DNA from: an uncultured virus (IMG/VR IMGVR_UViG_3300027896_000016)
Lineage: Duplodnaviria; Heunggongvirae; Uroviricota; Caudoviricetes
Reading direction: 5' to 3' (one strand)
Length of the DNA stretch: 64,000 nt
IMG/VR virus record: IMGVR_UViG_3300027896_000016
Position 1 is the stretch's first letter. Every line of letters starts with the position of its first letter. This document shows positions 1 through 63,887 of the stretch, piece by piece. Below the pieces are notes generated by a model. It saw only the letters and a program-made list of their open reading frames with translations. It was not told the DNA's origin and ran no database searches. The translations under genes and the position numbers were made by a program.

Positions 1-31
1 AGTCCTTTTGTTGAGACATGTGTAAATAATT

Positions 32-379
32 GTGGCAAGAAAGGTGGTGAAGATGACAACTGGCGTTCAGGTTCAACCGGATGAAAATGGCACCTATAGT
101 TTATTTAAATTGTCGCCAACGGGCAAAAGTTTAAAGTTGGCCGAAAATATTAAGACCAAAGAAATTGCCGGTTATCTGGCAAAATGTGGGGAAGTTATAG
201 ATTTGCAAACACAAATTGCATTTCTTACAAAGATTGTGACGTTTTGGGAGGGGTGCAAAATATTGTCTATGGATCATTTGCCGACGTGTCACTCTAAGAC
301 AAATAAAGAAAGTAGAATTTGTAATTGTGGCCACAAAGAGGCTATGGCCCGTGTTAGGGTAATTATTAAGGAGAACTAA
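32..379 (+). CDS. hypothetical protein near the end of the plus-strand arm
   Basis: 115-aa ORF coupled to the next ORF by a TAATG overlap; C-terminal H..CH..C.C cluster; start uncertain. Confidence 0.6.
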   Translation: MARKVVKMTTGVQVQPDENGTYSLFKLSPTGKSLKLAENIKTKEIAGYLAKCGEVIDLQTQIAFLTKIVTFWEGCKILSMDHLPTCHSKTNKESRICNCGHKEAMARVRVIIKEN

Positions 380-609
380 TGCGAATAAAAATCCCAAAAG
401 AAATAGTTCTTGATAACGGTTATAAAGTAATTATTAATTTAGGTATTAATATTTTGAAAGGTCTTAAGGCAGAGGCTTTAGAAATTATTGAATTAGAGAT
501 CTATAAAGATAATGTTCAGGTGGCGCGGCGATCAATGACGCCCGCCGAAATAATTCCAAAAGAAATGATGGACGCATTTAATGCTTATTCGACCAAGACG
601 ACAAAGTGA
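379..609 (+). CDS. hypothetical protein, last gene of the plus-strand arm
   Basis: RBS AAGGAG upstream; converges on the minus arm ending at 668. Confidence 0.7.
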   Translation: MRIKIPKEIVLDNGYKVIINLGINILKGLKAEALEIIELEIYKDNVQVARRSMTPAEIIPKEMMDAFNAYSTKTTK

Positions 610-652
610 TAATCTGTGAGCCGTCGCAACGATTGCAAGCCGATTGGGCGTT
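606..652 (+). repeat. segment complementary to 55797-55819 and 55852-55876
   Basis: 630-652 pairs with 55797-55819 (1 G-U); 606-629 pairs with 55852-55876 (1 G-U, 1 bulge). Confidence 0.9.
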
Positions 653-667
653 ATTGTTTTATTTTAG

Positions 668-919
668 CTAGACCAAATGTCTTTGCCAATGCTTTTCATC
701 CAAATCACCCATTGCCCAATTTTTATGAGCCAAAATTCTTAGACTTATTGAGATTAGTTTATCTAGTTCTTTTTCTGTAGGGCATCCGTGTTGTCTAAAT
801 ATTAGAATCCAGCCAAAACATTTTGGGCATTTTGTGACTATACCGTATTCATCTTCATAGAGAATAACCGAATCTTTTGGCAAATTACAAAGAGGGCATT
901 CGCTGTATTCATTGTTCAA
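668..919 (-). CDS. small Cys-rich protein, possibly HIT-like zinc-binding
   Basis: CPLC..ILYED..CPKC..H pattern; last gene of the minus arm. Confidence 0.55.
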   Translation of the reverse strand: MNNEYSECPLCNLPKDSVILYEDEYGIVTKCPKCFGWILIFRQHGCPTEKELDKLISISLRILAHKNWAMGDLDEKHWQRHLV

Positions 920-1287: not shown

Positions 1288-3354
1288 CTATTCTATCTTT
1301 ATGGTTTCTTTTCTTAATTTTTGCAAGCCATTTTCGAGAAATTCGGTCATTCCGTGCATACCAACAGCCGTTATTAAATTAGTTAGTTTATAGAAATTTG
1401 CCGCCATTCTTGAATGATAATCTCCAAGGGCACTTTCAAAAGCCCTGCCGCAATCGCCATAATCTGTCACGTAATGCGTACATTCGTGAACGGCGACTTC
1501 GTAGATACGTTCAAGATCCTGCCTGTCAGTGGGCCAAAAAATTTCATCGCCGCGCATTGGATTGAACAATATCCAATTATTGTCTTTTATTTGCAATCCA
1601 GCCAATTCTGAGTCTAGGACAAAGCCGGTATTGAAAGTTGTCTTGTCGCAGTTCATTTGTATAAGTATAAATCGTACTAACTCTGTCCAGAATTTTGCAA
1701 GACGCAGCGTATTTGGTTTCATATTTTCTAAATGTAATCCAATAGGTATCTTAGTATCGCCCTTATTATTTAAGATTAAGAATTCTGGCTTCCAAGTTAG
1801 TAATTTAAGTGCCGATTCTATATGACCTTGGCCAACGAATTCTATGTCTAGCAAGACTTTTGCTATATCATAGCTAACATTTGCGAGCAAATTATCATCT
1901 TTTCTTTCAGCAAAATGGCCATATGCCTGTGCTGCAATAGCGCCCAAAATTTTCGGCGGAATGATTCTTACTTTTCTTTTCTTGATAAATTCTGTTTCTG
2001 TCAGCAAATTAACTAATTCTGCCGACCTCGTATCGAAATTTATATTATCAGACCGGGGATCTGACCAAATTTCTTTGATTTTCTTGGATTTTTCTTGTAA
2101 AATTACAAATTTATCTCGTGCCAGTTTTTCAAGAAATTCGCCAATGCCTTCTCTTAATGTAACATTAGTAAAGTCCAGTCTATTTGGCATTAGAACATCT
2201 ATGGATTTTACTTTTAGTTTGACCGTAACTTTAGCGTCACAATTTCCGGCGTATTTACTAAACATGTGTTGGCCGTCGCTTGTCATGACATATAGTCGCG
2301 CACTTTGATCTCTATCACTTAGTTTTATTTTTCGTGATGTAATATCACAAAAATCGACTAAATTTCTCGCATGTACTTCCATATCAATGCGCCGACCGGG
2401 ATCGAAATCTGCCGCGACTTCTTTTTCTGTAACTGCATCTTCATAATTATCATAACCCTTGACCAAGAATTTCACACTAGGTAGCCGACATCTTTGAATA
2501 TAAGCTATTGCGTCAGAAGTATTAACGGCACGATCTTTGTTCATTATGACACGAATATAGGTTCCCTTGAACATCTCTTTTGTTTTACTTACAGTAATCT
2601 CTAGATTATCTTCCGGGGCGCTTTGGGCTTCGTTATCTAGTGTTCGAATATAATAAGAAATATGTGGCAATAGCAACAATTCTTTGGCCTTGCCGAAACC
2701 GCCAGTAGTTCCCTTGCCGCGTTTGCCAGTTTCACCCAAGGAGAATAGCAGATTCTTTAACTCTTCTTCCGTCATTCCTGAACCATTGTCCATGCATGTT
2801 GCAGTTATGGTATTATCGCCATTGTCTTTTACTTCGCAAAGTATTATCGTTGCACCGGCATCAACAGAGTTTTGTATGGCTTCCCGCCACCAACAGATTT
2901 TCCAGTCTGAACCATATTCGCGCTTCATATTATCAAAAAAGTTTGGCGAGAATTTCCAAGAAATTTTTGGGTTTGCTGCAAATTTTGTGTTGCCGATTTT
3001 TACTAATATTGCCTTGCGCCCATCTGACAAAACTCTTTCGCCCATTTGATAAATGTATCCAGCCATAGCCAAAGCTCGCAGCTTGGCATAGCCCGGTGTG
3101 TCAGAGACGGCCATGTATAGGCCCGTCCGTAGCTGGCGCGGGTCGAAGTCCCGTTTGACAAAGGTTATGTTATCGGGCATGGCGTTTTTTCTCACTTCTT
3201 TTTGGGGTTCTCTATATTGTCTTATAATTTCATCTTGTTCATTAGCTTTTTTATCATAATAATCTTTTTCATCTTCTCTAGCGTGTACTTGCATATGTCG
3301 ATAGTATCTTCGTAATTCTAAATGATCCCTTAAAGTTAGTTTACCTTCCGCCAT
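1288..3354 (-). CDS. GHKL (HATPase_c) ATPase fused to a C-terminal HExxH zincin-like domain
   Basis: REAIQNSVDA, DNGSGM, TGGFGKA GHKL boxes; VAVHECTHY near the C-terminus. Confidence 0.85.
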   Translation of the reverse strand: MAEGKLTLRDHLELRRYYRHMQVHAREDEKDYYDKKANEQDEIIRQYREPQKEVRKNAMPDNITFVKRDFDPRQLRTGLYMAVSDTPGYAKLRALAMAGYIYQMGERVLSDGRKAILVKIGNTKFAANPKISWKFSPNFFDNMKREYGSDWKICWWREAIQNSVDAGATIILCEVKDNGDNTITATCMDNGSGMTEEELKNLLFSLGETGKRGKGTTGGFGKAKELLLLPHISYYIRTLDNEAQSAPEDNLEITVSKTKEMFKGTYIRVIMNKDRAVNTSDAIAYIQRCRLPSVKFLVKGYDNYEDAVTEKEVAADFDPGRRIDMEVHARNLVDFCDITSRKIKLSDRDQSARLYVMTSDGQHMFSKYAGNCDAKVTVKLKVKSIDVLMPNRLDFTNVTLREGIGEFLEKLARDKFVILQEKSKKIKEIWSDPRSDNINFDTRSAELVNLLTETEFIKKRKVRIIPPKILGAIAAQAYGHFAERKDDNLLANVSYDIAKVLLDIEFVGQGHIESALKLLTWKPEFLILNNKGDTKIPIGLHLENMKPNTLRLAKFWTELVRFILIQMNCDKTTFNTGFVLDSELAGLQIKDNNWILFNPMRGDEIFWPTDRQDLERIYEVAVHECTHYVTDYGDCGRAFESALGDYHSRMAANFYKLTNLITAVGMHGMTEFLENGLQKLRKETIKIE

Positions 3355-6446: not shown

Positions 6447-7295
6447 TTAATTTAGGCCCAAAATTTCCATGAAGTCATTAATCAAAATTTCGGCAATCGC
6501 ATCTTTGCCCCGATCTATCTCGCGGACTTCCTTGACTGTATAGAATCTCTTTCTAAATTGATCCAGTCGCCGCACGTCGTGAATTTCTTTTTCTATACCT
6601 ATGTCTCTAAGTGATTCGGGCCTATTGACGCTCAAATAATCGGCCATTAGGTCTATAAGATTGAGAAGATTGGCATTTTTGTAGTCTATATAGAAAGTCT
6701 CGCCGCTGCGCTTGACTATGGCCTGTCTGTCGCCACGCTTGCGCTTCGTGACTATTATTAATCGGGGCGCTTTGACGCCGTATTTTTCGGCAACTTGGGC
6801 CAATAAATTATTGTAACTGGCCAGCGCAACGTCGGCGGTGCTTAATGCGCGAATTTTTTTGGGCCTACTTAAATCTTTTTGAACACTTGCCCCGAGAGGG
6901 ATTTTATAAGTGATATTTTTAATCTTGCGCATTTCTATAAGATAATTCATTGCTTCGGCAAAGGAATTAAATACTTCTTTAAAATACTTATCGTGTTTGC
7001 CTGTTTTACTTATGTCTTTAATAAGCAAAAAATAATGCGTCATTTCGTGAACGATATCTAAAAGAGTTAGCTTATTATAGTCAGCAAAGCTTAAATTGTC
7101 AATATCTTTGCGCTCGCCAACGTCGATATTGGGTGTTGGCACTTTGGCGAATTTGCTTAATTCTGTCACGACAGCTTTAACGCTCATAAACGGTATATTG
7201 GTCAAATTCTCGCGTTCGACCATTTGCCGAATGTTTTCGGGCATGTCGGCCAAAAGGCTTTTGTATTCTTTTAGGTCATTGTTTATGTCGGGCAT
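6447..7295 (-). CDS. putative SprT-like zincin metalloprotein
   Basis: IVHEMTHYF ... GKHDKYF; second half looks like a degenerate repeat of the first. Confidence 0.6.
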   Translation of the reverse strand: MPDINNDLKEYKSLLADMPENIRQMVERENLTNIPFMSVKAVVTELSKFAKVPTPNIDVGERKDIDNLSFADYNKLTLLDIVHEMTHYFLLIKDISKTGKHDKYFKEVFNSFAEAMNYLIEMRKIKNITYKIPLGASVQKDLSRPKKIRALSTADVALASYNNLLAQVAEKYGVKAPRLIIVTKRKRGDRQAIVKRSGETFYIDYKNANLLNLIDLMADYLSVNRPESLRDIGIEKEIHDVRRLDQFRKRFYTVKEVREIDRGKDAIAEILINDFMEILGLN

Positions 7296-7653: not shown

Positions 7654-8309
7654 GCTAAATACGCCTTTAAGTATTTTAGATTTTCGGCGTTAAGTATTTT
7701 TCCAAAAATATCGCCAAGATATGTCTTAAAATACGCTTTTCTTTCGTCGTCTTCAATATCTAAAAATTCACTATAAAGTTTACTTAAAAAGAATATATAT
7801 TTAGCATTATTTTTAAGATCGTAAATAACATAAATACTGCCCATTTTAAGATAATTTCTCGTATCTTTAGATTTTCGCGTACACCAAACTGTTCCTTGAC
7901 TTTCATATATAACACTTGCTATACTCGGGCATTTGATTATTAAATAATCTTTGTCTTTATATAATATTTTGCTATCTTTATGCAATATAATTTCACTTAA
8001 TTCTGTTCTAACAGTAGGTTTATATTCATAATAAAGATCTTTTAGCGAAAATATATTATATTTGCCTATATCGCGCTGTTTTGGTTCTAGATTTTGTTTA
8101 TTTTGGTCAAACCATGTTAAAATTCTCCTAATTACACTCAAAGGTACTGGAAAATAACATTGTTGCAATTGTCTTAAATTATCACCTAGCCATAAAACAT
8201 AAGATTTTTTTGGCGTAGGATCTGCCAAAAAAATATGTTCTATAGTCTCTGAGTCAAAGAACTCAGAGAGAATCTCTTGCTTGCTAGGATTTTGTAGGTA
8301 ATTTAACAT
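7650..8309 (-). CDS. hypothetical phage protein with GTxWC motif
   Basis: ADPTPKKSYVLWL and QGTVWCTR; N-terminal MLNYLQNP. Confidence 0.7.
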   Translation of the reverse strand: MLNYLQNPSKQEILSEFFDSETIEHIFLADPTPKKSYVLWLGDNLRQLQQCYFPVPLSVIRRILTWFDQNKQNLEPKQRDIGKYNIFSLKDLYYEYKPTVRTELSEIILHKDSKILYKDKDYLIIKCPSIASVIYESQGTVWCTRKSKDTRNYLKMGSIYVIYDLKNNAKYIFFLSKLYSEFLDIEDDERKAYFKTYLGDIFGKILNAENLKYLKAYLA

Positions 8310-14420: not shown

Positions 14421-14963
14421 TTACGCTCCTACTGTCATTAGATTGCTTGCTTTTGCCGCTCGCTTGTCCTCAGAGTTAAGCCAATATATACCTACTATTG
14501 CTATCGCCGCTGCGTCGGCTTCGTGTTCTGTAATATTGGCTTCTAGGCCGAACATGTCTTTTATTTTGGCTATCATATCTAACTTAGAACTTAGGCCATA
14601 ATCTGTCAAAGCCTTTTTAACAACATTCGGCAATATTTCGATAAGTCTAATTTTATTATCAAATGCACAAAGTTTAATCACGCCTATATTTTCTGTTATA
14701 TTATTGCCAACAAAGCTAATATGGGCATTTATTGATTTTTCTATGACCAAAATATTTAGCTTATTGTTAACTATAAGCTCTTGTGTCTTGTTATATAATA
14801 ACCTAAAACGCTCGGGGTCTTTCTCTTCACCTAAGAACTTAAATAGGCTTATATCTAGTAATTTTGCTGCACCGTCACTAAATTCCAAGGCGCATAGGCC
14901 GAAATTTCTGAAACTTGCGGGATCTATGCCGCCTATGCGAATATTATTGTATAAACTAGGCAT
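14421..14963 (-). CDS. ruvC: RuvC-like Holliday junction resolvase
   Basis: GIDPA, LVIEK, P..VKKALT.YG..SK, HEADAAAIA. Confidence 0.85.
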   Translation of the reverse strand: MPSLYNNIRIGGIDPASFRNFGLCALEFSDGAAKLLDISLFKFLGEEKDPERFRLLYNKTQELIVNNKLNILVIEKSINAHISFVGNNITENIGVIKLCAFDNKIRLIEILPNVVKKALTDYGLSSKLDMIAKIKDMFGLEANITEHEADAAAIAIVGIYWLNSEDKRAAKASNLMTVGA

Positions 14964-22579: not shown

Positions 22580-23604
22580 TCAGGCAACAGAATTTTCTTT
22601 TTTGTAAAATCTAAAACTACTATAACATTTAAATTTAATATCTTCCAATTTAGCGCTTTGACAAATTCTTTCGCCATTTATAAGTGAATGTAAACTTAAT
22701 TTATTTTTAAAAGGTGTACCGCCAATATAACAAAGTCCATATTTAGGATGAATTACTAAACTTCCTCGTTTCAATCCAAGACTTCTTGTACCTCCATATT
22801 TTAATCGTTTTCCACCTTTAGAAAACTGAAGATGATGTAATTGTCTCCTATGAAATCTCAATGGAACCACAATTAATAAAGATTTATTATCTGGATTTTT
22901 CTTTCCGCCAACTTCACTATAAGCTAAAATCCAACTATCAACATTATGTGCAGAAAATTCTTCCTTTAATTTTGAACAATTTTTTCTAATCCAAGTCGAT
23001 TCCTTAAATCGGATGTTTCCCGTCCTTGCATAATTTTAACAGAAGCAATCTTTTTAAGTTCTTCATAAAACCACTTTTTACCAACTTCCAACAAACTAAA
23101 ACTAGAATCCCACCTTCTTTGACCAGTTTTCTTAGCCTTAACATCCTCAACTATAAATTGAGAAATTGGGAATATTTTAATAAATTTATTGACAATTCTA
23201 AGTTTTAACTGCCATCTAGCCTTAGTAGAAAACGGTAATTTTCTTCCTCTTCTATTTTGTCTCGGTTTTCTATATGGCGTTTTTCTAAATCTGCGAGCTT
23301 TACGCATATTCCTGCGTACCTCAACTGCGTCTTTTACCCAAGTAACCGCATACGATAAAACATTTAAATAAGTTTTCCTTTTTGATTTAACTGTAAATGC
23401 TTCTCTTTTACTCCCTGGATCAATACCTACTACTATAGGCTGCATATTTCTGGCAGAAGGTTCTACGTTTAACCTAACACAAAATACGCCTAGCTTATAA
23501 AAATAGGTAGCCTTTCTACTTCTAATCCACTTAGAGGCCCTTCTACGAGTAGTTGGCATAAGTGGTTTATTATTTTTATCTACAACTGGAACCATGTTTT
23601 TCAA
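22580..23604 (-). pseudogene. isrB: isrB, frameshifted by a 1-nt deletion near 22980
   Basis: KPLMPT, GIDPGSK, IVEDVK, then SAHNVDS in a shifted frame; GAAAAAATT versus GAAAAAACTT in the intact paralog; no HNH. Confidence 0.85.
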
Positions 23605-23611
23605 ATTACAT

Positions 23612-23869
23612 TTCCTTAAAATCTTTGAATTGTTGTAAGCAATTCAAAACTCGAATAAGTATATACCCCTTCGACACTGACAGCCACAGGGATTACGGAT
23701 TAGGGGAGCGTCTGTAATATGTCTTACCCTGCCACGAGTTAGGCTGTTCAGTTTGATTGGACTTTTGTTTTACCTCCTTTCCAATCCATGTCTAGTTAAC
23801 ACTTACGTCGGAAGGTCGCCTATTGGCTAGGTCATTCCGAACCATCTTTTAAAAACAATGGCTGTTAAC
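23612..23869 (-). ncRNA. omega-RNA scaffold of element 1
   Basis: GTTAACA...TGTTAAC closing stem followed by TAGAC; colinear with 25660-25917; directly upstream of isrB. Confidence 0.8.
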
Positions 23870-23909
23870 AATTTTCGGCCTGATCTAGTTCGATTGCCAT
23901 TTTACACCC

Positions 23910-24056
23910 CTATCTTAGTAATTTGCCATTTGGATCATCCAGACCAAACAGGCCCGGCCATTTTTTCTGCAAATTTCCGACAATAATATATAATAAAATA
24001 CCGCCAATTACAAATAATACAATTTGTTCAACCTGTTTATTAGTTTTACTTGACAT
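23910..24056 (-). CDS. small TM protein
   Basis: start MSSKTNK; TM; PGLFGLDD. Confidence 0.65.
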   Translation of the reverse strand: MSSKTNKQVEQIVLFVIGGILLYIIVGNLQKKWPGLFGLDDPNGKLLR

Positions 24057-24066
24057 ATTTATCGCC

Positions 24067-24591: not shown

Positions 24592-24614
24592 AAATATTTC
24601 GCTAAACCATTATT

Positions 24615-25649: not shown

Positions 25650-25659
25650 TTTCTTTTCC

Positions 25660-36284: not shown

Positions 36285-36290
36285 TTTATT

Positions 36291-37028: not shown

Positions 37029-37042
37029 TTAATCACTCCAAA

Positions 37043-44455: not shown

Positions 44456-44470
44456 GAAAATGCCCCTTAT

Positions 44471-47873: not shown

Positions 47874-47885
47874 CAAGAAACTCCC

Positions 47886-52538: not shown

Positions 52539-52988
52539 TTAAACGATTTTTGCCTTTACTGTCTTTACCGCTACTCCATTATCAAAATTGTCTGTTGGAA
52601 CATCTCCATCTGAATCATCGTCGTCATCGTCATCTTCGTCGTCTTCATCACCATCTTCAATAGGCTGTTCTACAAATTCTTCATCATGAGATGCTAACAC
52701 TAAAAGAGCGCAATCTTTCGGACTTAGCGGCTTATCCACAGCGGCCATTTTACATATTTCTAGCAAAGAATTTCCTAGCCAAGTAGCGATTCCAGAAACT
52801 TCTTCAAGATTTTCGGCCAAATCCTCAATATCTAATCCTTTCAAAATACTATTTAATTTCACAATATTTTTATTCAAAATCGCTAATTGTTCAAGAATAG
52901 CCGAATTTTCACTTTGAGAACCTTTTATTGCCGCCTCTAAAAGTCCTGCAACAATATTAGGCTTCTGATTCTGTTGATTCTGATTCAT
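52539..52988 (-). CDS. coiled-coil protein with acidic tail
   Basis: probable start MNQNQQ after GGGGA. Confidence 0.65.
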   Translation of the reverse strand: MNQNQQNQKPNIVAGLLEAAIKGSQSENSAILEQLAILNKNIVKLNSILKGLDIEDLAENLEEVSGIATWLGNSLLEICKMAAVDKPLSPKDCALLVLASHDEEFVEQPIEDGDEDDEDDDDDDDSDGDVPTDNFDNGVAVKTVKAKIV

Positions 52989-54933
52989 CGGAATCTTCCC
53001 CTTCATCTTCGTCACCATCCGGCGACTCTTCACCATTTTCCTCTTTTTTAATATCTTCAAATTCGGACTTAACAATAGCAAAACAACTTATACCCCATTT
53101 AATTACAGCCGGATTCTTAAGAAGCGCAACTAAATTAGCAATAAGATCTGGATTGGCATATTTGTTCAAAAAATCTACTACTTGCGGTTTACCAGTAAAA
53201 GACATTATTTCTTCGAGCATTTCTCGCGGTAATTTCGTTATAGCAAATTCAACCCAATTCGGTTCATTCTGCATAATTTTCGCGTCTTCGATCATCATAG
53301 CAAGTAATTCGTTTGTGTATTTATGCCAAATCATTTCTTTTTCTTGAACTGAAAATTGTGGCGCTTCAACAACTTGAACCTCTTCTTGTTTTGGCTGTTC
53401 TTGAGCCACAGGTGCCGGTTCCGATGTTTGCACTTGTGCTTGAGGCGTAACCCCTTGCTGCACCTGGACTTGTGGCACAACCAGCTTTGATTCCTGCGTT
53501 TTCTCCTTCCTTATCATAGTCGGTTGTGGTGCTGTCTCGGTTCTATTCAAAAGTCCAGGTTTTTCTTCTGTCACTACTTCAAGCATTTTTGGCGGTTTTA
53601 CGATAATTGGCTGAATCGGCTGAACTGACTGAACTGGCTGCATTTGCGGTGGATTCTGAACACCAGTCAATTCAGGCATTCCCGATTTTCCAGCGAAACT
53701 AGCAATTAACGGAACCGCCTCACTAGCCAAATCCTTTATTACTTCACCAGCGTCTTTGATCCAAGATTGTTTGCCGCTAGCATCGGCGGCATGATCCAAT
53801 ATCACTGTCATCATTTTCATTAAACTTTCGGACTTATCTTTCTGAGATGCAATTATCATCTCAGTCATAGCCTTCATCGTTTCCATACTACGGGCCATTG
53901 ATTCGGCCTGAACACGACTCATATCGGCTTTTACTTTTTCGAGACTTTCGCTAGATCTTCCATCACGATCAGCCTGAATTTTCATAGCTTCAATTTGGGT
54001 TCGCATATTTTCAGATGCCTGTTGCGATTGCATTTTGAATGTTTCTGCGATCATATTACTCTGTTGTTTCATGGCTTCGATCATTACTTGCTGAGAATTT
54101 GCAGTATTTGTGCTTTCTTTTGAATTAGCAATAGCAGCAACGAGAGCTTCAAAACCCTTAGAAACGTCGGCTTTTAGTGCTATAATCTTTTCTTCTTGCG
54201 CCCTGAATTTTTCGTCGATTTTCTTCTGTTCATCGACATCCTTCATGAATTCTTTAATAGTATCGTCTACATTTGGTTCATTAGACTTATCTTTTTCTAG
54301 TTCTTTTAGCTCTTTTTCTAATTCAACAAGCCGCTTTTTTCTATGGGTTTCCTGAATTTTTTGCTCTAAATCCTGGCAACGATCTGATTCAATTGTCTTA
54401 AATTTGCCATTTCCACCGTTATCACCAGCACCAGAATCTAATTTATCCTCAGCTTCAATGGGATCGCCGGAAACTTCGGTCATGAAATTGCTGTGTATAG
54501 CGCCGGAATCATCATAAACTAGAATCCTGTACTTGCCACCACCGAACAATTTTCGTATTGTTTCTTCTAATTCAAGTTTATTTGAAGGCTTTGTTTCAGA
54601 ATGTAAATCGCGCTCTGGATAAATCTTGCCACTTTTAGGATGCTTATAAGTAGGTTTATTAACTTTCACGACCCATCCTTCATAATCTGTCGTTCCAATA
54701 AGCTGCAAAATATCCCAATTATTGCGAATTACACTGCCAATTCCAATAGGTCTATCAGGTTCTCGCAAAAAAGATGGAACTTCAACCCGATCCCTTTCGC
54801 GTTCTCGTATTGATTCCCGCCGATCTTCCCGAATTTTCCTTTCTTTGTCTTCTTCGGTTTCTTGAATAGGTTGAACTTCTGTCTCTTTAATCTCCCTCTT
54901 AATTGTAATCGCTTTCTCTTTTTCTTCGGCCAA
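52957..54933 (-). CDS. large coiled-coil protein, first gene of the late arm
   Basis: TTG start after AAGGAGG; M/Q/E/K-rich heptads; GGGKYRI. Confidence 0.75.
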   Translation of the reverse strand: MAEEKEKAITIKREIKETEVQPIQETEEDKERKIREDRRESIRERERDRVEVPSFLREPDRPIGIGSVIRNNWDILQLIGTTDYEGWVVKVNKPTYKHPKSGKIYPERDLHSETKPSNKLELEETIRKLFGGGKYRILVYDDSGAIHSNFMTEVSGDPIEAEDKLDSGAGDNGGNGKFKTIESDRCQDLEQKIQETHRKKRLVELEKELKELEKDKSNEPNVDDTIKEFMKDVDEQKKIDEKFRAQEEKIIALKADVSKGFEALVAAIANSKESTNTANSQQVMIEAMKQQSNMIAETFKMQSQQASENMRTQIEAMKIQADRDGRSSESLEKVKADMSRVQAESMARSMETMKAMTEMIIASQKDKSESLMKMMTVILDHAADASGKQSWIKDAGEVIKDLASEAVPLIASFAGKSGMPELTGVQNPPQMQPVQSVQPIQPIIVKPPKMLEVVTEEKPGLLNRTETAPQPTMIRKEKTQESKLVVPQVQVQQGVTPQAQVQTSEPAPVAQEQPKQEEVQVVEAPQFSVQEKEMIWHKYTNELLAMMIEDAKIMQNEPNWVEFAITKLPREMLEEIMSFTGKPQVVDFLNKYANPDLIANLVALLKNPAVIKWGISCFAIVKSEFEDIKKEENGEESPDGDEDEGEDSDESESTESEA

Positions 54934-55128
54934 GGCAAATCCTCCCTTTTCTAATTGGGCTTCCAAGCCCTATTTTCTGAAACTATAGGAATTGACACCT
55001 ATTACGAAATTACAGTTTAACAATTATGAAATAGTTAATTAATTTGATAATTCGGCAATTCGATTATTTCTGTGTTCTGCATTTTTATGTTGGGCCAAAG
55101 CCTTAATCGAAAAACAATTCTTGTCACC

Positions 55129-55614: not shown

Positions 55615-56040
55615 TAGCTTCCATCGGTAGGGGTAGACACAAGCCCGCTACCCGGTAGCGTGTTACACGATCCTTGACAATCGCGGCGGTTCTGAGGCAC
55701 GTAGCGGGAGATTACTTTCCCGCCGAACGGAAAACCGGCGATTTGCTGATTATTTGTAAAATCCGTAAATCTCAACCGGGAAAACGAAACGCCTTAAACG
55801 CTCAATCGGCTTGCAATCGCAAATTTGCGGTTTTAACCGTAAATTTACCGATTGTGACGGCTCTACAGATTATCACGCGGTAGGGGTGTTTATTTCCCCC
55901 TGCCGCTTTTCAGCGATTTGCGGTTTTTCTCGCAAATTTGCGAATCCCTGAAAAGCGGCAGTAGTGCCGTTTAGAAAATCGTGCCGATTTTGCGGTAATC
56001 GCACGATTTTAACAAAATACCGCAAATGAGGGATTAGTAA
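55615..56040 (+). ncRNA. long structured 5' leader of the early arm
   Basis: successive stems including TGCCGCTTTTCAG/CTGAAAAGCGGCA (55901-55960); no credible ORF. Confidence 0.55.
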
Positions 56041-56041
56041 A

Positions 56042-56488
56042 ATGGCTAAGAAGACTGAAGTTAGTGCGGTCCCGGTTGTCCCGGTAGCGGCTGCACCCGT
56101 CGCGCCCATGGCCCTTCCCGTCGCGCCCGTGGCCCCTGCCGCGAGCGTTCCGGCTCCCGAGGGTAAGGGGAAGCGGGGACGGCCAAAGGGATCGAAGGTT
56201 GAAGCGGTTCGGAATAACTACGCTTCCCTTATTTCGGCTGTAAGAGTTGATAAGGCCGAAAAGGTTACTCCCGATATGATCGAAAAGTATCGGGCCGAAA
56301 TGGTAGCTTTCTACAGCGAAAAGGGTAATTTCGCTACGGATAAGCTTCCGGTCAAGATCTTGGAGCGTATGGGGATTGCGGCTCCGAAGTCCAGTAAGAA
56401 GGATTTGATTACGGAAGTCGCAAGCCTTAAGGCCGAACTGGAAATGTTGCGCGCAATGAAGGCGCAAATGGAAGGGGGAAAGAAGTAA
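56042..56488 (+). CDS. first early protein; AT-hook-like motif and C-terminal coiled coil
   Basis: RBS GAGGG; KRGRPKGS; KKDLITEVASLKAE. Confidence 0.85.
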   Translation: MAKKTEVSAVPVVPVAAAPVAPMALPVAPVAPAASVPAPEGKGKRGRPKGSKVEAVRNNYASLISAVRVDKAEKVTPDMIEKYRAEMVAFYSEKGNFATDKLPVKILERMGIAAPKSSKKDLITEVASLKAELEMLRAMKAQMEGGKK

Positions 56489-56510
56489 CAAACTGCAAGT
56501 AAGGCAATTA

Positions 56511-56545
56511 AGCCCGAATGGGAAAATTCCCGTTCGGGCTTTTTT
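56511..56545 (+). terminator. intrinsic terminator
   Basis: AGCCCGAATGGGA/TCCCGTTCGGGCT followed by a T-run. Confidence 0.8.
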
Positions 56546-56552
56546 GTTATAT

Positions 56553-56672
56553 TGGGAATGGCCGAAGAATAAAGGGCCGATAAAACCGCGTTTTTTACAG
56601 AAAACGCGCAATAATCGACCGCCCGCTGTAACGGGAAAGAAGCCAAATAAGGCTTCCGGCCAAATTTTCCCA
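56553..56672 (+). ncRNA. unrecognised kissing-loop RNA, copy 1
   Basis: loops TTACAG (56595-56600) and CTGTAA (56626-56631) are complementary; closing stem present. Confidence 0.75.
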
Positions 56673-56772
56673 TATTTGTAGTACTCCCCGATAGGTCTTT
56701 CCGGCCTATCGGGGATTTTTTGTTATATTGCCGGTACTTAGCTGCGCAGCAAGCGGCAGCACTTACCGACTT

Positions 56773-56884
56773 GGGCATAGCCGAAATTAAAGGGTTGAAT
56801 AAAATCTTGCTTTTTTGCAGAAAACAAGATTGAAACAACCGCCCCTGCAAGGGAAATTGGCGCATAAGCCAACGACTATTGCCC
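56773..56884 (+). ncRNA. unrecognised kissing-loop RNA, copy 2
   Basis: loops TTGCAG (56815-56820) and CTGCAA (56845-56850); same linker motifs as copy 1. Confidence 0.75.
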
Positions 56885-57006
56885 TTCCCCGATTGTCCTT
56901 ACCGGGCAATCGGGGATTTTTTATTATAGGCTATTATTAGCCGACAATATTCGCTAGAGCGTTCTAGCGAAAATCGAATAAACCCGAGGGATCGAAAGGG
57001 GATCGT

Positions 57007-57525
57007 ATGGCGAATCGAAAGGATAGGTCAATTGCTAGCACGTCTTTTGTGTCGTTTGTTGAGAAGCACAAAGGCAAGACAAAAAAGATTTCAGTCGAAA
57101 AGTTAGACGAATTGCGCGAAGAGTATATAGACGCAATTGGGGAAAACGATAATTTTGAATATGAAGCCGTTCCGATTTCACTGCGAAATATGGTCGAATG
57201 GGAAGATGAAGACGATAATTCGGACAACGATTCGGACGATAATGAAGATATTGACGATGAAGACGATGAAGACGATGAAGACGAAAGGCCGCGCCGAAAA
57301 TTGCGAAATTCGCGCAAATCGCGCAAAGTCGGCAACGCCGATATTTTGGCTGCAATTGTCGGCCTAACGAATGCAATTGCAGGAAAGACAACGCCAAAGC
57401 CGGAACAACCGGAAAAGCCGGAACCTAAACCGGAAACAAAAAAGGATTTGCGGGATCAAGTCGCGGCGCTTAAAGCCGAAATTGCGGCACAAACGGCGCA
57501 AACGGCAACGCCACAAAAGCCGTAA
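57007..57525 (+). CDS. early protein with long acidic tract
   Basis: D/E run; KKDLRDQVAALKAE. Confidence 0.8.
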   Translation: MANRKDRSIASTSFVSFVEKHKGKTKKISVEKLDELREEYIDAIGENDNFEYEAVPISLRNMVEWEDEDDNSDNDSDDNEDIDDEDDEDDEDERPRRKLRNSRKSRKVGNADILAAIVGLTNAIAGKTTPKPEQPEKPEPKPETKKDLRDQVAALKAEIAAQTAQTATPQKP

Positions 57526-57708
57526 TAAATTGAAAATCGGTAGCGGTGCAAAATCCGGGCGAAAGAACCGGACTGCACAGAGTAATTAAGCCGACGTTGC
57601 GAATCGGTCTACCGATTTTCTTTTAACCCCGGTTGCTCGAAAGGGCTTCCGGGGTTTTTCTATTGTGTAGTGTTGGGCAAAGGGAAATTTGGCAAAAAGG
57701 AGAAAAAG

Positions 57709-57966
57709 ATGCATTGGAAATGTCCAATAGAAGATTGTTCTAATTGCACCGGATATCTTTGCGACAAAGCCGATGAAAATGACGATGATTTGTTAGATGA
57801 GGAAATAGATAATAAGCCTTATTGGTTTTGCGAAATGTGCGGATACAAAAACGAAAAGAAGCCTATGCCGCTAGATCGTCAGAAATTTTACGATAAAGTG
57901 GCAAGTTCTCACGCGCCAATTTGCCCGAAATGCAAATCCGAAAGCCTTATGCCAGTAGGATTTTGA
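57709..57966 (+). CDS. zinc-finger protein
   Basis: start after AAGGAG; CPIEDCSNC, CEMC, CPKC. Confidence 0.75.
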   Translation: MHWKCPIEDCSNCTGYLCDKADENDDDLLDEEIDNKPYWFCEMCGYKNEKKPMPLDRQKFYDKVASSHAPICPKCKSESLMPVGF

Positions 57967-58060
57967 ATTAATCCCCAGTAGGCCGAAAGGCTTATCGGGG
58001 ATTTCTTATTTATAGAGAGTTTGTACAAAGGAGAAAGGAATTAGCATAAAGGAGAAAGAA

Positions 58061-59635
58061 ATGGAATTGCTGACAAATGCGCTTAAGGCGCGGATTCCGG
58101 GGATACATTTAAGATCCCTAGAAGAACGGCGAGCACTTGAAACAATTCTGAATTCGGTTCAGGAAATTAATACCGTATCCAAAGACAAAAAAGAACTATG
58201 GATATGGACGCTAAACGCCAAAGGCGCATTTCGAGTCAATCCGAAAAGCACAAAATGGGAATTAGAGCCAATTGGCGACGACACTATTTCTTTCGATCAG
58301 GCTATGGATAAGTTTAATTCTTTGGGCGACAACGAAACAAATCCACGAATTGTATTTTGTCTACTCGATCCTTGGGATAGCTTGACGCAAGCCATAAATT
58401 TGCGAATTTTGCGCGATTCTCTGGCTAACTCCCGAGCAAACGGACAATGTATTATTCTTTTGGGCAAATCGTGGCAGATTCCAGAGGAAATTCAACAAGA
58501 TGTTATGATCTTAGATATCAATTTGCCAACAGTTGACGAAATTATTTATTATATCGGAGCCTTGTGCGATCAATACGTTCAAAGATTTGGCGGAAAAATT
58601 AAAGTAGAAAAAGATATTATACCGGAGTTCGCAAAAGTATGTTCCGGTTTGACATTCAACGAGATTAAGAATATCGTCAGTCTTTCTATTGTAGAGTACA
58701 AGGAAATTTCGCCCAAATGTATCGCGCTTGCTAACGATAATAAGAAACAAATCGTTAGCCGGGACGGTACGCTTTATTTCGAGGAATTGCTAAAGAGCAT
58801 AGACGATATCGGCGGCATGGGCAATTTGAAAAGATGGATTTTCCGGCGCAAAAAGACGAATCAAGACGCCGCGCAAAAGAAAGGTATCTATAACCCAAAG
58901 GGTGTGTTGCTTATTGGCCCGCCGGGTACGGGAAAGTCGGCTTGCAGCAAAGCCATTTCGACTATCTTTAATGTGCCGCTTTTAACTCTGAATATGGATC
59001 GAATATTGAATAAGTGGGTAGGGGAAAGTGAAAGCAATATGAGAAAAGCCTTTAAAACGGCAGAGGCATGTGCCCCGTGCTGTTTAAGGATTGACGAAAT
59101 TGATAAAGCATTTGCCGCCGACACTTCGGGAGTCGGCACAAAGCTATTGGGACAAATTTTAACGTGGATGCAAGAAAAAACGGCTAGAGTCTTTATTATT
59201 GCTACAGCTAATTCGATTGAAAACCTACCTGCACCCCTATTCAGAAAAGGACGATTCAATGCGCTTTTCTTTGTTGATATGCCCGGCCTATCGGCTAGGC
59301 GCGACATTTTCAAGATTTACCTGAAAAAGTGCAAATTTGAGATTTCCGACAAAGATCTCAATATTCTAGCACAAAAGACCGATAATTATAATGGCGCGGA
59401 AATTGAAGATATTGTTCAAGATGCTTTGATCGAAGCGTTTGACGCCGATAGGGATATGGTAATTGACGATTTGCTCAGAGCAATTTCTGAAGCAACGCCG
59501 ATTGCTATAACAATGTCGGAACAAGTTGACGCTATTCGGAAATGGGCCAAAGACAAAAAGGCCCAAATGGCCGATTTGCCCGAAAAGGCCGAAAAGAAAG
59601 GGGGGCTTTCTCTCCCCGATCTAGATCTAAACTAA
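58061..59635 (+). CDS. Ycf46-like AAA+ ATPase
   Basis: GPPGTGKS, KWVGESE, IDEIDK, ATAN, RKGRF; degenerate N-terminal AAA domain. Confidence 0.9.
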   Translation: MELLTNALKARIPGIHLRSLEERRALETILNSVQEINTVSKDKKELWIWTLNAKGAFRVNPKSTKWELEPIGDDTISFDQAMDKFNSLGDNETNPRIVFCLLDPWDSLTQAINLRILRDSLANSRANGQCIILLGKSWQIPEEIQQDVMILDINLPTVDEIIYYIGALCDQYVQRFGGKIKVEKDIIPEFAKVCSGLTFNEIKNIVSLSIVEYKEISPKCIALANDNKKQIVSRDGTLYFEELLKSIDDIGGMGNLKRWIFRRKKTNQDAAQKKGIYNPKGVLLIGPPGTGKSACSKAISTIFNVPLLTLNMDRILNKWVGESESNMRKAFKTAEACAPCCLRIDEIDKAFAADTSGVGTKLLGQILTWMQEKTARVFIIATANSIENLPAPLFRKGRFNALFFVDMPGLSARRDIFKIYLKKCKFEISDKDLNILAQKTDNYNGAEIEDIVQDALIEAFDADRDMVIDDLLRAISEATPIAITMSEQVDAIRKWAKDKKAQMADLPEKAEKKGGLSLPDLDLN

Positions 59636-59731
59636 AACATATTAATTAAAACCCCGATAGGCTTAATTGCTTATCGGGGTTTTATTATGTGTGGACATTT
59701 TTGTTAGGCTTTAGCAAAAAGGAGAAAGAAA

Positions 59732-59926
59732 ATGGCTGCGGGAGATTTGATTAAAGTCGAAATTGACAAAGAGGGAAAGGTACGACTTTCAATAATCTCG
59801 AACGATCCCAAACACGGGGATCTATTAGAACCATTCGAAAATATAGTTTCGAATGGAAATGCGAAATTGGTTGAAAAACACCGTTGCGATCATTCGCATA
59901 GTGTTGGGCATACGCATAGCCATTAA
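59732..59926 (+). CDS. DUF2997-like small protein
   Basis: IKVEIDKEGKV; His-rich end; context next to the Ycf46-like ATPase. Confidence 0.6.
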   Translation: MAAGDLIKVEIDKEGKVRLSIISNDPKHGDLLEPFENIVSNGNAKLVEKHRCDHSHSVGHTHSH

Positions 59927-59963
59927 TTGTGCGAAATTAAACCTTAAAATAAAGGAGAAAATC

Positions 59964-60287
59964 ATGCCTTGCTGGACTGTCGTAAAAGTGCCTTTAGAGA
60001 TGGACATTAAGGGCAACAATAAAGACATAGAAGAAGCCCTAAATAGAATGGGCTATGGAATTGACGTTAAGCGCGAGGGTTTTATTCGTGCAGATAACGT
60101 TACTTTGACAAAAACCGGCGATTCGTGGCGTCTTTCGACGCCGAACAAGACTTTCGATAGAAAGAAGTTTATTCAGGAAATGAGTCGGGCAAAAATCTTG
60201 AATGAGGCCAAGCGCAAAAATTATAAGGTCATTCAAGATGAAATTGACAAAAACGGCAATTTGTTAATGCGAATGATGGTGAGATAA
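59964..60287 (+). CDS. DUF1257/Ycf35-like protein
   Basis: start MPCWTV after AAGGAG; EALNRMGY...AKRKNYKV...NGNLLM. Confidence 0.65.
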   Translation: MPCWTVVKVPLEMDIKGNNKDIEEALNRMGYGIDVKREGFIRADNVTLTKTGDSWRLSTPNKTFDRKKFIQEMSRAKILNEAKRKNYKVIQDEIDKNGNLLMRMMVR

Positions 60288-60296
60288 CCGAAAATA

Positions 60297-60422
60297 AAAT
60301 TGGGTAACGATTTGCAGCGTCTTTTGGGATGGATTTTTGGTGATTTACTCTGCAAAAACCAAAGACCATTAGCCCGACTGGCTTATATTTCTTTAGCTAG
60401 GAAATAATAAGCTACCCAATTT
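60297..60422 (+). ncRNA. multibranch RNA with possible loop-loop pairing
   Basis: closing stem AAATTGGGTA/TACCCAATTT; TTTGCAG (60311-60317) complementary to CTGCAAA (60350-60356). Confidence 0.55.
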
Positions 60423-60511
60423 GGCCCCGATAGCCTTCCCGGTTGTCGGGGCTTTATTATTGACAGACATTGTGTAGTCAAAGGCGAAATTTTAGCAAAA
60501 GGAGAAAGATC

Positions 60512-61561
60512 ATGGTTGTAAAAGAAATTTCGGACATTGGTTACACTTTTTTTACTGATAATTTGCCCGCTGCAATTACAGTAGAAAAGGTCAAGTCGGC
60601 CCTTGAAGTCGCAAATCTCGATCCAGAAATGGCGCGAGAATTAGCAAAAAGGTTCTGTTTCGCACGGGCCAAAAACCATATGCATGATTTGGGCTTGATA
60701 GATCAAGTTATTGAAGACGAAAAACGCTGGATGTTCCAGTTAAGTAAGCGTTATTTCGAGCAAGAAGGAATTACTTACGAGAAACAAGCAATATTCTGGT
60801 ATAACAAAGAAAGCCAAAGTATTGACTCTGACGACGAAAAAGTCAAAGCCAGAGTTGAAGAGTTATTTGCGCGTTTTGGTGAAGTTTACTTGCCGTCGGA
60901 TTTGACGAAAATAATCAACAAGATCTTTAATCGTCAAAAAGGTATGATTGCCCTTAGACGGCATGGCGCAATTTACTTTGTGCCCGAAAAGTATCGGGAA
61001 CTGCTAGACAAAATAATAATCTTTATGTGTGAAATCAGCGCTGATTGCGTTGTCTGCAATGTCGGCGCAAGTTCAAAGGGCGGAGTTAAGGAAAAAGCAA
61101 TGTCGATGTTGAAAGACGACGTTCGCAATTTCCTTGAGAAAGTCAGTCAAGATGTTAAAGACCTTGACGCGGCTGTTAAGAACAAAGACGGCCCGAAGAA
61201 ACAAGAACGGCGTATTTTGCAGAACCGCTTTGACGAATTGTTCAATGAAATACAGAGAATCGCCAATTTCTGTATCTCGTGCGGCGAGGATTTTGCCAAG
61301 TATATCAAGGAAATCAAGACCGAAGAAATTAATTTGGCTGCAATCTTCGAAGCTGACTGCGATCCGGCAATTCTTGCAGCCGTCGCGCAAGGCGGCAATT
61401 TGTCGCAAACAATGGCGCGAATTGTTAAAGGTATCACGTTAGATCAGGAATTGCCCGTTGTAGACGTGGCAAAAGTTCAGGCAGTCGAGCTAATTTTGGC
61501 GGAATCCAAGAAAAAGCCCGATTTGCCCGTTGTGCAAGTCGGAGCAATGCCGCAAATTTAA
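60512..61561 (+). CDS. DUF6744/DUF3150-like protein
   Basis: start MVVKE after AAGGAG; LRRHGAIYFVP motif. Confidence 0.65.
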   Translation: MVVKEISDIGYTFFTDNLPAAITVEKVKSALEVANLDPEMARELAKRFCFARAKNHMHDLGLIDQVIEDEKRWMFQLSKRYFEQEGITYEKQAIFWYNKESQSIDSDDEKVKARVEELFARFGEVYLPSDLTKIINKIFNRQKGMIALRRHGAIYFVPEKYRELLDKIIIFMCEISADCVVCNVGASSKGGVKEKAMSMLKDDVRNFLEKVSQDVKDLDAAVKNKDGPKKQERRILQNRFDELFNEIQRIANFCISCGEDFAKYIKEIKTEEINLAAIFEADCDPAILAAVAQGGNLSQTMARIVKGITLDQELPVVDVAKVQAVELILAESKKKPDLPVVQVGAMPQI

Positions 61562-61638
61562 CAAAGATCCCCGGTAGCTACTTAAAGCCACCGGGGATCT
61601 TTGTTTAGGCCGAAATTTTTAATAAAGGAGAAATAATC

Positions 61639-61863
61639 ATGGTTTGGTCAGATGAAAAAGAAGCCGAAATGATTAAATTTGTCGAAAATAAGTTTGATTT
61701 AACTTTTTGTAAGGCAATAACCTATACTTCCAGTCAAGAACAGCCAAGATGGATGGAATTTGCTGATAAAAGACAAAACAGTGTTTTGTTTTACTTCAAT
61801 GGTGAAGAGTTGTGGGGACCGTGGATTACGCGCGAAAACCAGCCAATTTGGAAATTGGAGTAA
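61639..61863 (+). CDS. hypothetical protein
   Basis: RBS AAGGAG. Confidence 0.7.
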   Translation: MVWSDEKEAEMIKFVENKFDLTFCKAITYTSSQEQPRWMEFADKRQNSVLFYFNGEELWGPWITRENQPIWKLE

Positions 61864-61868
61864 TAATC

Positions 61869-62186
61869 ATGCCGCCAGAAAATTACGCTGAATTAACATC
61901 AAAAACATTTCAAGCTGTACTTAAAACAATTGAAAAATGGCGGATTAATAAAGAAATTACCAAACAAATGAATGAATATAACAAAAAAATATTTAAAGAA
62001 GTCGGTTGTATTTATGGGGATGAAAATTTAATGATGGATGATAAAGACAGTGAATGGAGCGAAACTACGCCATTAGACGAAAATCTAAGAGAAGAGATTA
62101 ATAGAAATCAAAAGCCAAAACCAGAAACACCAGAAATTACTGGAGAATTGCCGATTGTCGAAGGTAAAATGCCAATTCCCAAATAG
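61869..62186 (+). CDS. hypothetical protein
   Basis: start MPPENY after GGAG. Confidence 0.65.
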   Translation: MPPENYAELTSKTFQAVLKTIEKWRINKEITKQMNEYNKKIFKEVGCIYGDENLMMDDKDSEWSETTPLDENLREEINRNQKPKPETPEITGELPIVEGKMPIPK

Positions 62187-62196
62187 GGGATAATCC

Positions 62197-62655
62197 ATGC
62201 CGAAAAATAGCACACTAAAAATAGTGATTTCGTGGGACGAAAACGAAATTGTTCAAAGAGAACGAGATCGGCGGGCCGAAAATTGCCGCACTTTTGGCGA
62301 ATATGAAGTAATTGACGAAAAGATTTGGAATGACGGCAAATTTTGGGACCGCGAATGCGAAAAGGCCCGAAAGGCAATTTTTGAATTGTCCCGGCGGCAT
62401 ATTAAACGCGGCCAAATTTGGCTAAAATTAGATTCTAATGGGTTCAGTAATCAATCAAGATCTTATTTAAACAATTTCTTCGCAGATTTCGACGATTGCG
62501 AGTATGAATCTTTTAAGATCTATGAATCAGAGGCCCAAATCGTTGTTAAATTATTTAATCCAGACGACGATAAAGAAATAACATTTAGTTTAGAGGCAAT
62601 AGATAGGCCGAAAATTCGCAAAAGAAAGATTAAACCAAGAAAACACAAAAACTGA
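62197..62655 (+). CDS. hypothetical protein
   Basis: RBS AGGGG. Confidence 0.7.
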   Translation: MPKNSTLKIVISWDENEIVQRERDRRAENCRTFGEYEVIDEKIWNDGKFWDRECEKARKAIFELSRRHIKRGQIWLKLDSNGFSNQSRSYLNNFFADFDDCEYESFKIYESEAQIVVKLFNPDDDKEITFSLEAIDRPKIRKRKIKPRKHKN

Positions 62656-62717
62656 ACATAAGCCTCTGAAGAGGCAAGTTTTATTAAGTCTCTTTTTAGA
62701 GACAAAAGGAGAAAGCA

Positions 62718-63278
62718 ATGAACACGATTTTGGAGCAATTGGGATCTTTGAGCAAAAGAATCGAAGAGCAAGAAGTTGATCTAGTCGAGCAAATCGACAT
62801 GCTCAGATTGCTATGGCAAAAGAAATTAAACGATCAGTTTACATTCAAAAAGGACGATATTATCAAGCCCTGGACGCGCAAGGTCTTTGTCGAGCAAGTA
62901 TCGGTTGAGCCAAACATTGAATTTTCGATTTGCTTCGATGGATACGAGAGAACCGGAACTTTGCTTACTATGCGAAATTTCGAGGGTACGAAAGACATTT
63001 TCTATTGCCATATTGCTCAAAGTAAAGAATTGCGTATTTTGGCTTATAGAACAAGTAACGGTGTGCGGCGATATTTTCTTAGATACGTCCCGCCGCAATT
63101 TTATACCTATAGAGACGGAGAAGACCCGGCGAAAGTCGGCGCTTTGAAGGCTATTTTGATTAACGGGCCGCAATGGCCTAGCAAGATTATTCACACGATT
63201 GAGATTATTCGTTGGGGAAAGAACCGTAACCCTCAATATACTGCACCGCGAAGCATTTTGTGCAAGATTATTGATTAG
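62718..63278 (+). CDS. hypothetical protein
   Basis: RBS AAGGAG. Confidence 0.7.
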   Translation: MNTILEQLGSLSKRIEEQEVDLVEQIDMLRLLWQKKLNDQFTFKKDDIIKPWTRKVFVEQVSVEPNIEFSICFDGYERTGTLLTMRNFEGTKDIFYCHIAQSKELRILAYRTSNGVRRYFLRYVPPQFYTYRDGEDPAKVGALKAILINGPQWPSKIIHTIEIIRWGKNRNPQYTAPRSILCKIID

Positions 63279-63288
63279 AAAGGGGAAT

Positions 63289-63489
63289 ATGAAACCATAC
63301 CTAGTAACACGAAAAATTATATTCGAAACTGAGCAACAAATCATATGCAATAACAAACGCGAAGCAAAAGCATCAGATATGAAAATAATAAGTGCTGCTA
63401 TTGCTGAAATGGTAAGAAAATATAATCTTCATAACCCCTACGAATGTCTTGAAGTAGAAATCAAAAACGTCAAAATCGAAGAAATGTAA
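63289..63489 (+). CDS. hypothetical protein
   Basis: start MKPYLV after AAGGGG. Confidence 0.65.
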   Translation: MKPYLVTRKIIFETEQQIICNNKREAKASDMKIISAAIAEMVRKYNLHNPYECLEVEIKNVKIEEM

Positions 63490-63562
63490 GATCAATCCCC
63501 GGTAGCTTCTTATAGAGGCTATCGGGGATTTTTGTTTGGGCCACAAAAAAAAGGAGAGAGAA

Positions 63563-63805
63563 ATGACAAAAGAAGAGAAGACCGAAGTTTTGAGAAATGC
63601 GCTCGTAATGGAAATCAAAAATCGTATAATAATTGCAAGTTGCAAGAGAAAGGCGGTAATTTGGACAAATTATCTCAATAAAGTTGATAAAAATAAAAAA
63701 TTACCGCAAAATTCCGACGTAGTAGATGTATTTGTATGGATTTGGAGAAATATGAAATGTATTCGCGGAAATTATCAAAAATTCTTTAATATTTTCTTTG
63801 CTTGA
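63563..63805 (+). CDS. hypothetical protein
   Basis: start MTKEE after AAGGAG. Confidence 0.65.
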   Translation: MTKEEKTEVLRNALVMEIKNRIIIASCKRKAVIWTNYLNKVDKNKKLPQNSDVVDVFVWIWRNMKCIRGNYQKFFNIFFA

Positions 63806-63887
63806 ACTAATCCCCGGTAGCTTATAGTATAGGCTATCGGGGATTTATTATTTACACATACAAATTGCCAATAAAAGGAGAAATAAA

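Follow-up and report, generated by a model that had tools for sequence, protein, structure and literature searches.

A 47-nt segment at the end of the plus-strand arm of a tailed-phage-like element is complementary to two blocks of the plus-arm leader

Why should the segment that closes a plus-strand gene arm be complementary to the leader of plus-strand genes, at the far side of a 54-kb block of genes pointing the other way? The question arises in a 64,000-nt stretch of DNA from an uncultured virus (IMG/VR record IMGVR_UViG_3300027896_000016), which we call the window. Plus-strand genes end at position 609. The minus-strand arm extends from 54966 to 668, and a gene-free region of 1.07 kb separates its first gene from the next plus-strand gene, which begins at 56042. 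The window has only two strand switches, and a copy of the repeat sits exactly at each; both pairing segments are outside reading frames, at the ends of the plus arm. We found that the complementarity is real, and we consider its interpretation as RNA pairing to be plausible and partly supported, though short of proof. The elements of the two sites, in order of position, are the following.

379..609, plus strand: last gene of the plus arm, 76 aa, with no family match.
606..652, plus strand: trailer copy of the repeat, 47 nt, starting 1 base before the TGA stop (607-609) of the last plus-arm gene.
651..666, plus strand: T-rich tract directly 3' of the trailer copy; the 50 nt before it fold at only -11.9 kcal/mol.
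668..919, minus strand: last gene of the 54-kb minus arm, converging on the trailer.
52957..54966, minus strand: first gene of the minus arm, 669 aa, without a family, 830 nt from the leader copy.
55797..55819, plus strand: leader block 1, pairing with 630-652 through 23 pairs including one G-U, and carrying two CAATCG hexamers 11 nt apart.
55820..55851, plus strand: insert present in the leader only, 32 nt, an 11-pair hairpin with one G-U.
55852..55876, plus strand: leader block 2, pairing with 606-629 through 24 pairs including one G-U, with one bulged T.
55877..56041, plus strand: remainder of the structured leader, upstream of the first plus-arm gene, with more long hairpins at about 55901-55963 and 55974-56003.
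56042..56488, plus strand: first gene of the plus arm, 148 aa, with no family match, followed by the first strong terminator at 56510-56541.

The original prediction had the 47-nt trailer pairing with two leader blocks and the 32 nt between these blocks folding as a hairpin of their own, and both statements proved correct in coordinates and letters. The segment 606-652 is the reverse complement of 55797-55819 plus 55852-55876. When both partners are read from the plus strand, all 47 trailer bases are paired, 45 in Watson-Crick pairs and two in G-U pairs (G647-T55802 and G626-T55855, at the two substitutions, as had also been claimed), and one leader base is bulged. The stretch 630-652/55797-55819 (23 nt, 96% complementary) is entry I10 among the 397 inverted pairs returned by a repeat search of the window, and 606-629 departs from 55852-55876 by a single G/A difference and one additional T in the leader. 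The longest exact run of the repeat is 17 nt, and this 17-mer core has two sites only in the window even with up to 3 mismatches allowed. An alternative alignment extends the likeness into the T-tract, matching GGCGTTATTGTTTT with GGCGTT-TCGTTTT beyond a 9-nt leader insert. Chance is excluded as the origin of this complementarity, because the 47-mer aligned to the reverse complement of the window with a Smith-Waterman score of 25.25, compared with a mean of 10.5 (sd 1.1, maximum 15.75) in 200 shuffles; the runner-up site outside the leader scored 10.

A chance match is one part of an alternative that also comprises an assembly artefact and the terminal repeats of an inserted transposable element, and we regard it as very improbable as a whole. 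With regard to an artefact, this DNA is listed in one DNA sequencing run, probably its source, and in no RNA run; an independent contig set of that run reproduces the leader junction, in that one contig of 5965 nt spans 51318-57282 in the orientation of the window, with no differences and no joint. With regard to a transposable element, the 55-kb segment 607-55875 would have TG...CA ends, but neither possible boundary shows a target-site duplication, and no transposase domain was found in the 87 of 90 frames scanned. The tetranucleotide correlations of the plus arm with pieces of the minus arm (0.62-0.89) overlap in range with those among minus-arm pieces (0.74-0.95), two values lying below. 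The transposable element was rejected as a candidate for want of a target duplication and a transposase. A dispersed bacterial repeat of the REP or MITE type was rejected as well, as there are two copies in the window and bacterial matches of the core are at chance level: a search of 596 billion bases of bacterial genomes with the 17-mer gave 69 exact matches, as many as chance would yield, with no extension beyond about 21 nt in any of them.

The element looks like a tailed-phage-like one from fresh water, and the window most likely represents almost all of a circular genome of roughly 64 kb. Known families are nearly absent from it. Domain scans covered 32 proteins with PHROGs and 87 of 90 frames with Pfam, three short frames being left out, and the family matches consist of an AAA ATPase (58061-59635), a RuvC-like nuclease, two RRXRR nucleases, two PcfJ-like proteins and a GHKL ATPase. 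Matches to tail-collar proteins in the window are weak. No tRNA was found in the window, and the proteins flanking the repeat could not be assigned a function by sequence searches of ESM Atlas, NCBIfam and PDB. Beside the trailer end lies the gene for the GHKL (MutL/MORC-like) ATPase, at 1288-3354, and near the leader end that of a small Com-like zinc ribbon protein, at 52103-52516; both are weak matches. The window also contains several internal repetitions. A tandem duplication of about 2 kb (22596-25817, 77-80% identity) carries the two genes for RRXRR (HNH-like) nucleases, at 22966-23604 and 24615-25649. At 35547-37783 lie three paralogous genes in tandem, each coding for about 245 aa, with 64-79% DNA identity over the repeated parts, and a gene for 1193 aa contains seven units of about 130 nt (32792-33622). 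A 9-nt tandem repeat lies inside a gene for 506 aa (51235-51378), where one minor contig has a 3-nt deletion at 51277, and a 12-nt tandem repeat lies at 28093-28164; the public contigs break off within both the 9-nt and the 12-nt repeat, in each case after exactly 30 nt of it.

Whether leader and trailer belong to one arm depends on the joint of position 64000 with position 1, which is marked by a stem with the following two arms.

63847..63879, plus strand: 5' arm of the junction stem, pairing with 3-30 and covering the ribosome-binding site of a small frame that starts at 63889.
3..30, plus strand: 3' arm of the junction stem, directly after a TAG made of base 64000 and bases 1-2.

This nested complementarity comprises 26 pairs. 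Joining the two pieces gains -16.7 kcal/mol, compared with -7.0 +/- 3.2 in shuffles, a gain that was reached by 1 of 300 shuffles and by 6 of 300 random pieces of the window. Between the ribosome-binding site, within the 5' arm, and the TAG at the joint, which serves as its stop, the small frame counts 37 codons, and such a nested stem around a small gene suggests a circular joint together with a 'panhandle' small gene. Moreover, a public contig covers 57255-64000 and continues for 6226 nt past 64000; the two ends of the window show no overlap. Hence, position 64000 is probably contiguous with position 1, with no gap or a short one, and on this basis the plus arm would measure about 8.7 kb. 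The circular genome on which the original prediction was premised is in this sense backed by a stem that spans the joint and by a contig that continues beyond 64000, at a level of support that stops short of proof.

The plus arm is rich in sites that resemble intrinsic terminators.

56510, 56685, 56886, 59647, 60423, 63494 and 63809 (span 56510..63845), plus strand: strong terminator-like sites, each a hairpin of 12-17 pairs followed by T residues.
About 57627, 57970 and 61565, plus strand: further terminator-like hairpins, identified visually.

An identical scan of the 54-kb minus arm returned one weak terminator only, and the regime of transcription seems to differ between the arms. A plus-arm terminator is followed by the next start within 43 nt in 5 of 10 cases. 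Gaps of this size leave little room for promoters, so that the distal genes seem to depend on read-through, and read-through of the arm would hold leader and trailer on one RNA. Several of the plus-arm terminators share CCCCG(A/G)TAG arms, and two that are near-identical (63494-63530 and 63809-63845) bracket one gene.

The last gene of the plus arm is alone in having no hairpin before its T-tract. The trailer copy occupies most of the 58-nt spacer between the convergent genes. It had been claimed that a T-rich tract follows the trailer and that a local terminator hairpin is missing, and both observations hold. Of the hallmarks of an intrinsic terminator, the U-tract (651-666) is present and the local G+C-rich hairpin in front of it is absent. 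The plus strand of 596-670 folds at -14.1 kcal/mol (z +0.42), with 129 of 200 shuffles folding equally well, and no terminator-like site was called at the trailer on either strand. The stem energy upstream of 651 amounts to -11.9 kcal/mol, as compared with about -25 kcal/mol at the true terminators of the arm. The repeat also contains an ATCTGT, which we take to resemble the class II stop signal of T7.

Our preferred reading is that the leader and the trailer of the plus arm pair as RNA, in cis or in trans. We advance it tentatively, as an explanation that may well be wrong. Plus-strand RNA reaching the end of the arm would pair with leader RNA. The latter could be part of that same molecule, provided that transcription continues past the internal terminators, or it could come from a separate and abundant short leader transcript. 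The product would be a duplex of 47 pairs, broken by the leader's own hairpin and adjoining the U-tract, and it would supply the stem that is missing from the last terminator of the arm. Alternatively, the duplex might act as a cutting and end-protecting site for a double-strand nuclease, as in rRNA leader-trailer helices. We infer plus-strand transcription of both sites, their meeting and the consequences of pairing. Only the RNA reading explains the G-U pattern, the hairpin that folds on its own between the two blocks, the start of the repeat at a stop codon and the stemless terminator.

The leader itself gives this reading mixed support. The plus strand of 55780-55890 folds at -35.1 kcal/mol (z -3.6), which was matched by none of 200 shuffles, and the minus strand at -26.4 kcal/mol (z -1.0), matched by 29 of 200. 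Over the full 266-nt leader (55780-56045), folding is equal on both strands (z -5.9 on the plus strand versus -5.7 on the minus strand). Within the leader fold, block 2 has a local partner at 55964-55974, and the inner 7 nt of blocks 1 and 2 pair with each other; these local partners would compete with the trailer. No Rfam match at the gathering level was obtained in the window, and none at E up to 1 in 54900-56100. Promoter scans gave matches at chance level only, and no transcription start could be placed with them. A motif of 15-21 nt, TTTTTTCTGCAAATTGGGCCAA, occurs in the same orientation at 55370-55391, 6783-6803 and 23961-23975 and could be a promoter-like signal.

Several considerations weigh against pairing as RNA. 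Judging from the predicted terminators, at least seven of which lie in the arm, a clasp in cis would need an antitermination system. The leader copy may lie upstream of the promoter. In addition, the likeness that continues into the T-tract may fit a copied DNA module better than the design of a terminator. To our knowledge, the largest span of an rRNA leader-trailer helix is one third of the 8.7 kb separating the two sites here. The original prediction saw the early transcript, or plus-strand ssDNA, clasping its own ends if the genome is circular. The premises of that proposal, namely non-coding sites, G-U pairs and a U-tract that lacks a stem, stand; the clasp itself stays hypothetical, and at least seven strong predicted terminators between the two ends and the strong local partners of the leader blocks speak against it.

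In one variant of this reading, the leader could be an antitermination RNA that remains tethered to the polymerase through about 10 terminators, until pairing with the trailer, just ahead of the U-tract, at once builds the stem and deprives the polymerase of this RNA. We consider this quite improbable. If true, the first half of a terminator would be transcribed 8.7 kb before the second, the end of the early arm would be set in this way, and early transcription would be kept from running antisense into the late genes.

The differences between the two copies bear on the choice between RNA and DNA. The duplex of leader and trailer has an energy of -89.8 kcal/mol when both partners are plus-strand and of -81.9 kcal/mol when both are minus-strand, a difference that is due to three G-U pairs: the two differences between the copies and the single mismatch of the insert hairpin all pair as G-U in plus-strand RNA, whereas minus-strand RNA would have A-C at these places. 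Assuming that about 1/3 of random differences give G-U on the chosen strand, two of two differences would do so with a probability of about 0.11 (about 1 in 9), and three of three, with the hairpin included, with a probability of about 0.04. The pattern had been taken to favor single-stranded pairing. The stronger duplex of the plus strand agrees with that claim, which is tempered by the chance figure for the two differences and by the fact that a DNA repeat fits the position of the copies equally well. An all-against-all RNAduplex comparison of the intergenic regions produced huge internal loops and was uninformative.

A DNA explanation is that the copies form an inverted repeat tied to inversion of the arm, either past or occasional, by general or phage recombination, with the RNA-like details being coincidental. 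We judge this somewhat unlikely. The copies lie precisely where inversion between inverted repeats predicts them, at the two strand switches, a RuvC-like resolvase is encoded at 14421-14963, and phages offer precedents for large segments that flip between inverted repeats. In freshwater cyanophages of the A-1(L) group, a region of about 30 kb flips between repeats of about 500-700 bp (10.64898/2026.02.14.705889), and the jumbo phage Matilda is described with terminal segments between repeats of 1.5 and 18 kb (10.64898/2026.10.21.760668). As in these phages, and as in the G segment of Mu and the C segment of P1, inverted repeats border a block of tens of kilobases in the window. But the known invertible segments, as their reports describe them, have repeats of 0.5-18 kb, or short sites with a dedicated invertase, and both isomers have been shown, whereas the repeat here measures 47 bp, no invertase was found among the frames scanned and the leader contigs contain no second isomer.

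The repeat would also be a poor substrate, since it is 47 bp long with one copy split by 32 nt and with no exact run beyond the 17-mer; the flip-flop of the A-1(L) group and of Matilda involves repeats of hundreds of bases or more. Of the hallmarks of a site-specific switch of the Gin/Hin/Cin type, the inverted repeats at the borders are present and a recombinase gene was not found, as none of the 87 frames scanned with Pfam has a serine or tyrosine recombinase, resolvase, integrase or DDE/transposase domain. The bridging contig bears on the inversion check that had been proposed along with the original prediction. The public-contig comparison covered 44001-64000, the leader side, and there the orientation of the window is the main one; none of the 6 loose contig ends listed, out of 24, falls at 55797-55876. 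This single orientation is a weak argument against inversion, since assembly into contigs loses rare forms, and any rare isomer with them. Finally, inversion leaves the G-U pattern and the missing stem of the last terminator unexplained.

Alternatively, the copies could be paired binding sites of one DNA-binding protein (a regulator, a roadblock or a loop-former) that mark the borders of the early arm, which we deem unlikely. The CGATTG hexamers of the repeat are spaced by 11 nt, about one helical turn, and the insert of 32-33 nt is near three turns. Moreover, the pattern CGATT(T0-2)G is densest in the kilobase of the leader, with 7 copies versus a mean of 1.3 per kb, and the leader resembles a protein-binding control region in having seven copies of CGGTAG on the same strand. 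On the other side, this enrichment is modest, and 6 copies occur in another kilobase; no protein emerged as a candidate, and binding sites need neither a near-identity over 47 nt nor differences of the G-U type. The CGGTAG copies extend over 480 nt (55401-55878), where about 0.1 would be expected; several of them make mini-hairpins of the type CTACC...GGTAG, and the array, lying between the arms, could be a control or origin-like array.

A further possibility is a module of a hairpin and a T-rich tail, used in the same sense on opposite strands at the two ends of the plus arm, where each copy would point outward and halt transcription leaving the arm. T-rich sequence does follow both copies when they are read outward (ATTGTTTTATTTT at the trailer and TTTCGTTTTCC at the leader), and the leader copy forms a long hairpin on either strand. 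But neither copy was called as a terminator in the outward sense, the leader hairpin is weaker in that sense (the minus-strand fold given above), its T-run begins about 10 nt after the stem, and the trailer copy has no hairpin core. This possibility appears improbable to us.

Relatives could have helped through covariation of the two sites, but none close enough was present in the collections searched. The DNA of both sites matched none of 50,697 phage records, and the 17-mer core had no match in viral contigs. The AAA ATPase of the arm has relatives at 14 loci of viral contigs (at most 36% identity), in cultured phages (at most 29%) and in metagenome contigs, where the best 80 of 525 relatives reach at most 46% identity over a part of the protein and at most 39% over most of its length. 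No relative of the 669-aa first protein of the minus arm was found in viral contigs. A degenerate pattern of the arm's terminator hairpin hit 17 viral loci, none of which resembles the window in protein or DNA. When 24 proteins of the window were compared with the relative loci L001-L094 by tblastn, the ATPase alone matched, together with one further gene in 2 loci, so that synteny was of no help. A search for long-range inverted-repeat seeds in 58 relative loci of at least 8 kb revealed no common layout. Locus L018 has an inverted pair of 53 nt. Locus L032 has two inverted modules of 110 nt (628-740 and 8145-8246), each upstream of an operon, and the internal hairpins of these modules differ by compensating changes; they are a repeated leader or promoter module and form no long-range clasp.

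Returning to the pairing of leader and trailer as RNA, a close parallel is found in bacterial rRNA operons, where complementary non-coding segments likewise bracket a long unit on the same strand (PMC10250234). In the account given there, pre-16S rRNA was first drawn with a 44-bp helix broken by two leader helices, and leader-trailer helices measure 25-44 bp, are interrupted by leader hairpins and are linked with antitermination through internal terminators (PMC10250234). Unlike in those operons, which enclose 1.5-2.9 kb of rRNA, the segments of the window enclose about 8.7 kb of protein genes with at least seven terminators, and the helix here is a predicted one. The untranslated ends of a message are also described as pairing in icaR of S. 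aureus (PMC3868564) and hbs of B. subtilis (PMC5737220). In these messages of one gene each the pairings are short, whereas a multi-gene arm would be enclosed by 47 pairs in the present case. With respect to intrinsic terminators, the likeness is a U-tract directly after a segment that can be fully paired. The difference lies in the partner, which is 8.7 kb away (or 55 kb) rather than a few bases upstream. In 1999, Yarnell and Roberts reportedly obtained release in vitro by providing a complementary strand in trans.

If the repeat is the footprint of an inversion, then a repeat of less than 50 bp is enough to mark the two-arm layout of a phage genome, and perhaps to bring it about. If instead the ends of the plus arm pair as RNA, a whole multi-gene arm of a phage would join rRNA among the units enclosed by leader-trailer helices. 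Such pairing would provide a natural example of a terminator stem that is supplied from afar, and it could reveal how early transcription is kept out of the late genes of a phage.
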